Positions 8,600 to 8,973 of a stretch of DNA of 64,000 nt are shown here, one piece after another; position 1 is the stretch's first letter; each line of letters opens with the position of its first letter. A program made the position numbers and the translations under genes. Under the pieces are notes generated by a model. It worked only from the letters and a program-made list of their open reading frames with translations. It was not told the DNA's origin and ran no database searches. Origin of the DNA: a virus; the UHGV virus genome UHGV-0385297, one strand, 5' to 3'.

Positions 8600-8810
8600 T
8601 AATAGATATATCCGAATTATATCCTTAGAACCACCAAAGGATGCACTTGCGGTAATTTGGATGGCGAGGAGCCGGTGGTAGTGTTTCGACACGAACCGAA
8701 AATGGTACACCATGTACCAGAAAGGACGTTCTATAGTGAGTTTTCACTTCTTTGGGAGTTCTCCCGTTATTACCACGCCTTTCTTGTATTACCAGTACAG
8801 AAGGGAGGTG
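8600..8810 (+). ncRNA. Structured 5' leader or cis-regulatory RNA upstream of the small peptide gene
   Basis: GC-richer segment with several hairpins (GGTGGTAGTGTTTCGACACGAACC, GGTACACCATGTACC) and a TATAAT-like -10 at about 8598. Confidence 0.3.
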
Positions 8811-8814
8811 AAAA

Positions 8815-8973
8815 ATGAAGAACTCAAAACTAATCAAACATATTGTTACATGCGTAACAGCAGCTGTAATTGTATCGATTATTGTTTATCCAGGCAACCT
8901 GCAGAATCTGCGTCTGCTGATTAACCCAGATAGCAGTATTGAGATCGAGGCTAACTTTTACCGTGTACAATAA
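8815..8973 (+). CDS. Small hydrophobic peptide (52 aa, MKNSKLIKHIVTCVTAAVIVSIIVYPGN...), type I toxin-like
   Basis: Strong RBS GAAGGGAGGTG 6 nt before the ATG. Single TM helix. Below the track length cut-off. Confidence 0.5.
   Translation: MKNSKLIKHIVTCVTAAVIVSIIVYPGNLQNLRLLINPDSSIEIEANFYRVQ

Follow-up and report, generated by a model that had tools for sequence, protein, structure and literature searches.

The transcription unit and its peptide

The plus strand of the virus genome UHGV-0385297, analysed here as a single window of 64,000 nucleotides (nt), carries between positions 8560 and 9071 a self-contained unit that consists of a LexA/Cheo-like box, a promoter, a structured leader, an open reading frame (ORF) for a peptide of 52 amino acids (aa) and a terminator. 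An earlier inspection of the letters alone, hereafter the sequence-only reading, had singled out positions 8600-8973 as a leader followed by a peptide of the type I toxin kind. The unit is wider than this, and that reading did not include the LexA-type box or the finding that the leader is better conserved than the ORF it precedes. The anatomy of the unit exceeds chance expectation, and ORF, leader, promoter, box and terminator are all retained in three diverged lineages (groups A, B and C).

The ORF (8815-8973, plus strand) encodes a bitopic membrane peptide, MKNSKLIKHIVTCVTAAVIVSIIVYPGNLQNLRLLINPDSSIEIEANFYRVQ, with a Lys-rich N-terminus, a transmembrane (TM) segment at about residues 10-25 and a C-terminal portion of about 27 aa predicted to form a β-hairpin. 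AlphaFold places a helix at residues 2-23 and strands at 29-36 and 42-48, with a mean pLDDT of 73, and the charge distribution (positive-inside) implies an N-in/C-out orientation. An index of public assemblies lists the exact peptide in 392 blocks, and the loci that were read, on contigs of up to 290 kb, come from human-gut metagenomes; this appears therefore to be a common gut-phage gene that standard ORF cut-offs miss. Six alleles, with 85-100% aa identity and all frames intact, show pN/pS values of 0.16-0.32 at a pS of 0.12-0.30. Two distant subfamilies of 54 aa, P0004 (56% identity, E = 1.6e-14) and P0005 (50% identity, E = 3.3e-10), came from an exhaustive HMMER search of 1.84 billion representatives and made the covariation analysis described below possible. 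The sequence-only reading had made its case depend on the conservation of the ORF in homologous regions, and this is what the six alleles and the two subfamilies, at about 50% aa identity, provide: the ORF is a genuine gene under purifying selection.

Throughout the peptide family the Lys-rich N-terminus, the hydrophobic core and the residues G27, D39 and E43-I44-E45-A46 are invariant, and the external tail (D39, EIEA at 43-46) is the most conserved part. No family match was found in Pfam or NCBIfam for any of the three subfamilies (E <= 10), nor in PHROG or PADLOC for the window peptide (E <= 0.1), and BFVD held no structural relative. A word-indexed protein search returned nothing past P0001-P0005, a search of viral_contigs by peptide recovered the main group only, and a metagenome scan by peptide alignment gave near-identical loci only. 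To judge from these comparisons, the peptide family is new. An arbitrium-like signalling peptide was considered and rejected, since no receptor is adjacent and the 375-aa helix-turn-helix (HTH) protein of the window lies 54 kb off and is not a receptor of the RRNPP/arbitrium type.

With regard to transcription, a perfect extended -10 promoter, TGATATAAT, lies at 8595-8603 on the plus strand with no good -35 element, and every subfamily has the motif TGnTA(T/G)AAT at this position. Transcription would start near 8610, 7 nt past the extended -10, which gives a leader of 205 nt. The pair 8610/8662 covaries, from A-U to G-C in locus L039 and in L042/43, which indicates that 8610 is inside the RNA and that helix P1 begins at the putative +1. 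At the other end, the T-rich hairpin terminator that had been read by inspection is borne out as an intrinsic terminator (9034-9071, plus strand), whose stem, AAAGAGAG...CUCUCUUU, forms a hairpin at 9034-9065 (-14.4 kcal/mol, z = -3.4) that runs into UUUUUUG and was missed by a consensus terminator scan. Hairpins 3' of the ORF were also folded in L012, L040 and L045, with different stem sequences and, in group C, a poor U-tract; the downstream hairpin of L029/L031 was read by eye only.

The leader RNA and access to the Shine-Dalgarno sequence

The leader stands out from its surroundings by composition, stability and conservation. The GC content is 0.43 over 8600-8799, as compared with 0.26-0.35 on either side, and the folding energy of the 241 nt that precede and surround the start codon is -66.7 kcal/mol, whereas shuffled sequences average -53.8 +/- 4.6 kcal/mol (z = -2.8) and 1 of 200 shuffles folds equally well. 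The hairpin-rich leader, richer in GC than its surroundings, that the sequence-only reading described is thus confirmed, and can be refined to the 205 nt from about 8610. Between subfamilies, leader identity amounts to 77-83%, against 64-68% for the ORF at the nucleotide level, and the length of the leader varies only between 202 and 205 nt. Within the main group, the divergence of the leader is 0.5-8%, always below the synonymous divergence of the ORF.

The predicted fold, all of it on the plus strand, opens with a 5'-terminal hairpin at 8610-8662, supported by both minimum free energy (MFE) and alifold predictions, in which P1 (8610-8620/8652-8662) is followed by P2 (8621-8626/8637-8642). 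The apical loop of P2, AGAACCACCA, contains a conserved ACCAC, and a conserved 9-nt bulge, G(C/U)ACUUGCG, occupies 8643-8651. Changes on both sides that keep pairing affect 4 of the 11 pairs of P1 and 3 of the 6 pairs of P2. Three smaller hairpins come next. H-a pairs GUGU with ACAC (8681-8684/8689-8692) around a UUCG loop, within an outer GGU/ACC helix (8674-8676/8695-8697), and H-b pairs GGUACA with UGUACC (8704-8709/8713-8718); the stems of both are invariant or merely change from U-A to U.G, and their loops vary (UUCG, UUUU or ACA in the former; CCA, UCA, UCU or UUAUU in the latter). H-c, (A)GUGA/UCAC(U) at 8735-8748, has its stem in all groups with a loop of GUUU, GUUA, UUU or AGA, in a stretch that MAFFT misaligned in groups B and C.

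Across 13 distinct leaders, 95% of the alignment cells are paired and 8 pairs are changed on both sides; P1 has four of them, P2 three and the 3' hairpin one. Shuffled alignments yield 3.4 +/- 1.1 such pairs, with 0 of 500 reaching the observed number, and slid controls yield 0-2. Covariation in homologous leaders, the check that the sequence-only reading had put forward, therefore supports P1 and P2 above both controls. Furthermore, the one-sided switches among G.U, G-C and A-U would be C.A mismatches on the minus strand, which identifies the leader RNA as a plus-strand transcript. The leader appears to be a new, covariation-supported RNA element: Rfam 15 gave no leader match at the gathering threshold over the whole window or at E <= 10 over 8400-9200, with only chance-level matches outside the leader. 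It has no paralogs in the window or in the loci (nhmmer), and a search of viral_contigs by leader 20-mer recovered the main group only, while a GC-rich 20-mer gave only chance matches in genome_contigs, in high-GC bacteria. Recurrence upstream of functionally related genes in many genomes was not observed: the leader was found only with this peptide, in one gut-phage lineage.

Two other ways of reading the leader were discarded. Attenuation through a coding leader or upstream ORF was rejected because no conserved upstream ORF or other leader reading frame is kept across lineages, and a pseudoknot between ACCACC (8630-8635) and GGUGGU (8674-8679) was not adopted, as it clashes with P4 and is broken in L004 and in L042/43.

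The ORF is preceded by a near-perfect Shine-Dalgarno sequence (SD) of 13 nt, AGAAGGGAGGUGA, at 8799-8811 (plus strand), in which GGAGGUG ends 4 nt before the AUG. Across alleles the SD reads AGAA(G/A)GGAGGUGA, and in several of them it is a perfect 13-nt complement of the Firmicute 16S rRNA 3' end, which the anti-SD of the leader, CACGCCUUUCU, resembles. The near-perfect ribosome-binding site noticed by the sequence-only reading is thus real. It is predicted to be sequestered, together with the start codon, in a hairpin at 8756-8825 (plus strand; the OFF hairpin). In this hairpin, the anti-SD CCUUUCU (8778-8784) pairs with AGAAGGG (8799-8805) and CAC (8774-8776) with GUG (8808-8810), positions 8765-8768 pair with 8814-8817 (AUG) and 8756-8762 with 8819-8825 (codons 2-4), and the apex is formed by 8786-8789 and 8795-8798. 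The hairpin was predicted independently in the MFE folds of the window, L031, L039, L040 and L042 and in the centroid fold of L045. Its cells are 93-99% paired, with one pair changed on both sides and with one-sided changes from U.G to U-A (8780/8803) and from G.U to A-U (8766/8816). In group C the same occlusion arises from other sequence, as 12 continuous pairs, CAUUUCCUUUCU:AGAAAGGAGGUG, read by eye.

Upstream of the anti-SD lies CCAGAAAGGAC (8717-8727, plus strand; inverted repeat I9), which is invariant in 13 of 13 distinct leaders and contains a copy, AGAAAGG (8719-8725), of the SD-proximal heptamer. This copy can pair with the anti-SD at 8778-8784 in a helix (the ON helix) that is mutually exclusive with the OFF hairpin and that closes a junction holding H-c and GGGA/UCCC. 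The ON helix is present in the MFE fold of an RNA ending just before the SD in 4 of 4 representative variants, whereas the OFF hairpin is the more stable by 7-10 kcal/mol once the RNA is complete. Since both of its partners are invariant, the ON helix is consistent with the data but lies beyond a covariation test. The role of CCAGAAAGGAC may be that of an anti-sequestor, and it is also a candidate ribosome standby site or STAB-SD-like site.

A search of viral_contigs by the invariant gapped pattern recovered, besides the main group, a repeat in the IMG/VR bin GVMAG-S-1101161-78 (L047-L053; for example, L048 5403-5489 and 8973-9039). This repeated element of about 70-90 nt has unrelated inner hairpins and is closed by the same 11+11-nt helix as the ON helix of the leader, CCAGAAAGGAC ... 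GUCCUUUCUUGUA. It shows no nhmmer homology to the leader and no Rfam match, and the shared helix is probably a coincidence, with a roughly estimated chance expectation of about 0.35.

The operator candidate and the phage context

Upstream of the promoter, at 8560-8573, lies a candidate operator of the LexA/Cheo type, AGAACACACGTTTT (in minus-strand reading), with the core GAAC-N4-GTTY at 8561-8572. It spans approximately -50 to -37 of the putative start, about 25 nt upstream of the -10. The operator consensus of Firmicutes LexA (DinR) is CGAACRNRYGTTYC. The motif GAAC-N4-GTTY has only 5 distinct sites in the 64 kb, one of them inside a tRNA and one inside the DUF262 gene. The box is found at the same relative position in every locus that covers it, in all three subfamilies, and the 60 nt before the -10, around the box, share only 51-63% identity between subfamilies. 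Elsewhere in the same phage, two near-consensus boxes, CGAACATATGTTCT and CGAACATATGTTTG, lie 39 nt apart at 55478-55491 and 55517-55530, which suggests that the phage uses the host LexA. They (55478-55531) fall in an ORF-poor region of 1.5 kb (54850-56400) that might contain an early or switch promoter under SOS control or else be the site of a long non-coding RNA. The conserved box, together with the other boxes of the phage, points to SOS-dependent transcription of the peptide unit, which would place the unit under LexA control. In the group C contig L045, two more GAAC-N4-GTTY boxes (1241-1252 and 1330-1341) are intergenic between two small divergent genes, which suggests that the moron promoters of this phage group repeatedly carry SOS boxes.

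The peptide unit is flanked on one side by the 3' end of the tape-measure gene and on the other by a variable island of defence-type genes. The tape-measure protein has 1463 aa (10095-14486, minus strand; PF10145). In the island, the gene at 7453-8442 (minus strand) encodes a DUF262/GmrSD_N protein that is NsnA-like, i.e. Menshen-type (PADLOC 1.9e-34); NsnA is discussed in a study of the Menshen antiphage system (PMC12065111). The gene at 6428-7084 (minus strand) encodes a DUF3990/PARP-like protein that matches the PADLOC candidate PDC-M13. In close relatives the DUF262 gene is a swapped version (L012 1610-2629, minus strand), only 40% identical as a protein, and the adjoining intergenic DNA is still about 99% identical, which looks like cassette swapping at a defence-type hotspot. 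Homology of the main group to these relatives starts exactly at the DUF262 start codon (8438) and stops past the terminator (about 9070).

Both distant subfamilies share the same layout, namely a minus-strand gene, a gap of 330-370 nt, the peptide, the terminator and the tape-measure gene. The upstream gene encodes a DUF262 protein in group B and a 71-aa coiled-coil protein in group C, where leader and peptide are kept, so that the leader belongs with the peptide and not with DUF262. The unit runs opposite to the flanking late genes and converges with the tape-measure gene. Equipped with a promoter and a terminator, inserted among late structural genes and bordered by flanks that are swapped between relatives, it is a mobile, conserved, terminator-bounded moron. 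A leader acting as a minus-strand or DUF262 element was rejected, as its G.U pairs would turn into C.A on the minus strand and as it stays with the peptide where another gene takes the place of DUF262. A divergent small RNA ending at the minus-strand hairpin 8558-8541 was also rejected, since the hairpin is unconserved in groups B and C.

Beyond the terminator, the gene at 9133-9561 (plus strand) encodes a 142-aa coiled-coil protein with a C-terminal TM anchor and no significant family match; it is a second moron, found in some relatives only. Its promoter, with the extended -10 TGTTATAAT at 9093-9101 (plus strand), lies past the terminator of the peptide unit. The sequence-only reading had allowed that the leader might be a known riboswitch controlling this gene instead. 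Besides the lack of an Rfam match, this idea was rejected because a separate extended -10 precedes the gene, past the terminator, and because many relatives lack the gene.

At the level of the whole genome, the temperate phage encodes an integrase, PhoH and five tRNAs (32705-32789, 35608-35691, 43071-43143, 43171-43243 and 44373-44446, all on the minus strand). An 876-aa protein (46510-49140, minus strand) matches the eukaryote-type RNA-dependent RNA polymerase fold (PF05183, 1.3e-13). Its nearest annotated relatives, in Thomasclavelia and Enterocloster phages, are 23-30% identical, and some of them carry the annotation 'RNA-dependent RNA polymerase'; YonO of Bacillus SPbeta is a more distant relative (about 22% identity). 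With this YonO-type enzyme, a two-barrel RNA polymerase of its own, the phage is recognisable as an SPbeta-like member of the phages of gut Firmicutes. No DNA-level match was found among 50,697 annotated phage records by megablast or blastn. Two further observations concern other parts of the window. The 375-aa protein at 62257-63384 (plus strand) has an N-terminal HTH_3 domain and a possible ParB-like DGAHR motif, read by eye only. At 58731-58800 (plus strand), among small plus-strand ORFs of early type, a sequence that covers the whole model of the HDV-like ribozyme family RF02682 (HDV-F-prausnitzii) scores 44.1 bits against a gathering score of 44.

Possible roles of the unit and relation to known systems

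The reading favoured here, tentatively and as the most plausible of those considered, is that of a moron preceded by an SOS box, in which the conserved 205-nt leader gates a membrane-acting peptide in cis through a competing anti-SD and SD mimic. A single monocistronic mRNA would encode a small bitopic peptide, with gating at both transcription and translation. In the lysogen the unit would be silent, and the host SOS response would turn it on as the prophage is induced. A stem at the 5' terminus of an mRNA typically stabilises the mRNA in Firmicutes, and the long 5'-terminal hairpin probably does so here; the 3' hairpin would bury the SD, the AUG and codons 2-4. The nascent RNA is expected to form the open ON helix first and then to refold into the more stable OFF hairpin, which would limit translation to a short co-transcriptional window. 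Alternatively, translation may need activation, be it by processing, by ribosome standby at the upstream SD-like site or by a factor that holds the ON junction. The peptide would insert N-in/C-out and act at the membrane or its outer face, either in a toxin-like manner or by inhibiting division or envelope synthesis during induction.

Several points weigh against this cis-gated, SOS-controlled moron. The transcription start, LexA binding, the RNA folds and the peptide topology are predictions. The box lies upstream of the usual repressing position, one of its half-sites is GTTT in groups A and B, and it could serve the divergent gene instead. The SD hairpin and the ON helix are almost invariant, and conservation cannot prove pairing. 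The covariation reflects few independent events, in three lineages only, all of them in P1 and P2 save one pair of the 3' hairpin. Moreover, the MFE predictions for the 5' half differ between lineages, mosaic recombination is evident and could make the leader of the main group look more conserved than it is, and the family is narrow, comprising three lineages of one phage group in human-gut metagenomes.

The sequence-only reading had compared the peptide with prophage toxins of the TxpA/BsrG type. The toxin-like part of that comparison stands as far as the size of the peptide (52-54 aa), its predicted TM helix and Lys-rich N-terminus, the SPbeta-like phage and a leader that, by fold prediction, makes the ribosome-binding site inaccessible in all lineages; neither an antitoxin RNA nor homology to a described toxin family (Hok, Ldr, TisB, Ibs, Fst, TxpA/BsrG and others; Pfam, NCBIfam, PHROG, PADLOC and BFVD) was found. 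The case is better for a unit that operates in the manner of a translationally locked toxin mRNA than for a type I toxin-antitoxin (TA) system. In a genuine type I TA system, a membrane-damaging toxin would be countered by a cis antisense RNA over codons 1-7, the SD and the anti-SD that blocks translation or triggers degradation, and this seems unlikely, if worth serious consideration. It would accord with a small, hydrophobic, single-pass peptide, with a structured leader that sequesters the SD, as in the hok, tisB and bsrG mRNAs, and with the SPbeta-type prophage context, SPbeta itself carrying bsrG/SR4 and yonT/SR6; SOS control would parallel tisB/istR-1. Antitoxins of the TxpA/BsrG type start at the 3' end of the toxin gene, and the antisense promoter that the sequence-only reading had suggested looking for there was not found: no minus-strand promoter 3' of the ORF is conserved in the three subfamilies. 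Inside the unit, five alleles carry mutations in the -35 or the -10 of the minus-strand promoter TTGCCT-17-TACAAT. Just one minus-strand site that resembles a promoter is position-conserved in three subfamilies, a candidate at 8842-8871 with the -35 ATTACA/TTGCAA and an extended -10, TGnAACAAT/GACAAT (TGnRACAAT, 8850-8842), from which an RNA would most plausibly start near 8835 and would be complementary to codons 1-7, the SD and the anti-SD. However, this -10 is a poor one (AACAAT/GACAAT) and overlaps the conserved codons I10-V11-T/S12, so that its conservation is confounded by coding constraint, and there is no conserved terminator. Likewise, the minus-strand terminator-like hairpin and U tract at 8719-8699 have a C.A mismatch in group B and in L029/L031/L034 and a U-run interrupted in group B, G.U pairs favour the plus strand throughout, and the 64-kb window holds no trans-complementary stretch longer than 12 nt. 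The conserved extracytoplasmic β-hairpin tail, finally, suggests a specific partner over simple pore formation.

The peptide may instead be a phage-encoded analog of SosA, YneA and SidA, an SOS-induced inhibitor of cell division or envelope synthesis; as a regulated effector outside any TA system it would stall division at induction, with the leader limiting and timing its synthesis. The LexA-type box before the promoter, the single N-terminal TM followed by a conserved extracellular C-terminal segment (AlphaFold, charge distribution) and the strong conservation of the external tail fit such an inhibitor. Yet the peptide resembles SosA and YneA neither in sequence nor in domains and lacks LysM, all Gram-positive examples are longer, the box is atypically placed and the elaborate leader would be left without a reason; this too seems unlikely. 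Somewhat further from probable is a superinfection-exclusion or lysogenic-conversion moron, whose membrane peptide would block DNA injection by related phages in the lysogen, the leader serving as an mRNA stabiliser by means of the 5' hairpin and a STAB-SD element. In keeping with this, the unit runs from a separate promoter to a separate terminator against the direction of the neighbouring late genes, always adjoins the tape-measure gene in a variable island with DUF262/NsnA-like and DUF3990/PARP-like genes, has a 5' stem that starts at the putative +1, and has precedents in HK97 gp15 and TP-J34 Ltp; a LexA-repressed promoter and a locked SD, conversely, argue against steady expression in a lysogen, and there is no homology to known superinfection-exclusion proteins. 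No more probable is the proposal that the leader is an undescribed sensor RNA, either riboswitch-like or controlled by a protein or a standby ribosome, in which a three-way junction closed by the AGAAAGG:CCUUUCU helix competes with the SD hairpin, so that an SOS-induced membrane effector would need a second intracellular signal and no antitoxin RNA. The least probable of all is a new riboswitch-like class sensing a ligand, a protein or a tRNA, with the 5' domain and the ON-closed three-way junction as sensor and the SD hairpin as expression platform. Covarying stems do alternate with the invariant unpaired segments ACUUGCGG, ACCAC, GGAGCCGGUGG, CGAAA and CCAGAAAGGAC, the length is fixed, the leader outconserves the ORF and the sequestor and anti-sequestor helices are mutually exclusive. 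Nevertheless, Rfam offers no match even at E <= 10, the element lies only upstream of one peptide family in one phage lineage, the downstream gene offers no metabolic logic for a ligand, and the invariance may reflect small evolutionary depth.

If the cis-gated moron is what it seems, the unit offers a compact model of how temperate phages of gut Firmicutes silence a potentially harmful membrane peptide until induction. Should an antitoxin RNA exist, it would represent a new type I TA family from uncultured gut phages; should there be none, it would be a toxin-like gene under purely cis control, by a LexA operator and an RNA switch. In both cases the answer has a bearing on how prophages are induced, on the timing of lysis and on the conflict between phages and hosts in the microbiome.

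Among described systems, superinfection-exclusion morons such as HK97 gp15 resemble the unit in being promoter-to-terminator units among tail genes that encode a small inner-membrane protein; they differ from it in that the SOS and translational locks predicted here argue against constitutive lysogenic expression, and no homology links them. The SOS division inhibitors of Gram-positive bacteria are represented by YneA of B. subtilis (PMC13396833) and by SosA of S. aureus, whose 77 aa include a TM segment spanning residues 10-30 and a C-terminus that is extracellular and essential (PMC6851548). LexA control, a candidate feature here, small size, an N-terminal TM and a conserved extracellular C-terminal segment are common to both of these and the peptide (PMC6851548, PMC13396833). 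They differ in lacking homology to it and in their length of 77-105 aa as compared with 52 aa; the LysM domain of YneA and ChiZ is absent here, and the peptide gene is phage-borne, is not divergent from lexA and has a long regulatory leader.

The bsrG/SR4, txpA/RatA and yonT/SR6 systems of B. subtilis prophages share with the unit the SPbeta-type prophage, a product below 60 aa with an N-terminal TM and an SD that is partly sequestered in the toxin mRNA. Their antitoxins are convergent over the toxin 3' end, where no conserved promoter is found here; there is no sequence similarity, and the leader of the present unit is far longer and better conserved. With hok/sok, the likeness lies in mutually exclusive helices that set SD access and in a co-transcriptional fold unlike the final one. 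The direction is the reverse: the nascent fold of hok is closed and is opened by 3' processing, whereas here the nascent fold is predicted to be open and the final one closed, and the unit has neither a Sok-like RNA nor a mok-like overlapping frame. The SOS-induced type I system tisB/istR-1 of E. coli differs from the unit, which shows no sequence homology to it and no IstR-like divergent small RNA or other detected antitoxin RNA, and which is borne by a phage of a probable Firmicute host and encodes a conserved external β-hairpin tail. The two have in common a LexA-type box before the promoter and a small single-TM peptide, and also a primary mRNA that is translationally inert, in the present unit by prediction, by virtue of its 5' structure and plausibly requires an upstream single-stranded element of the ribosome-binding, standby type.

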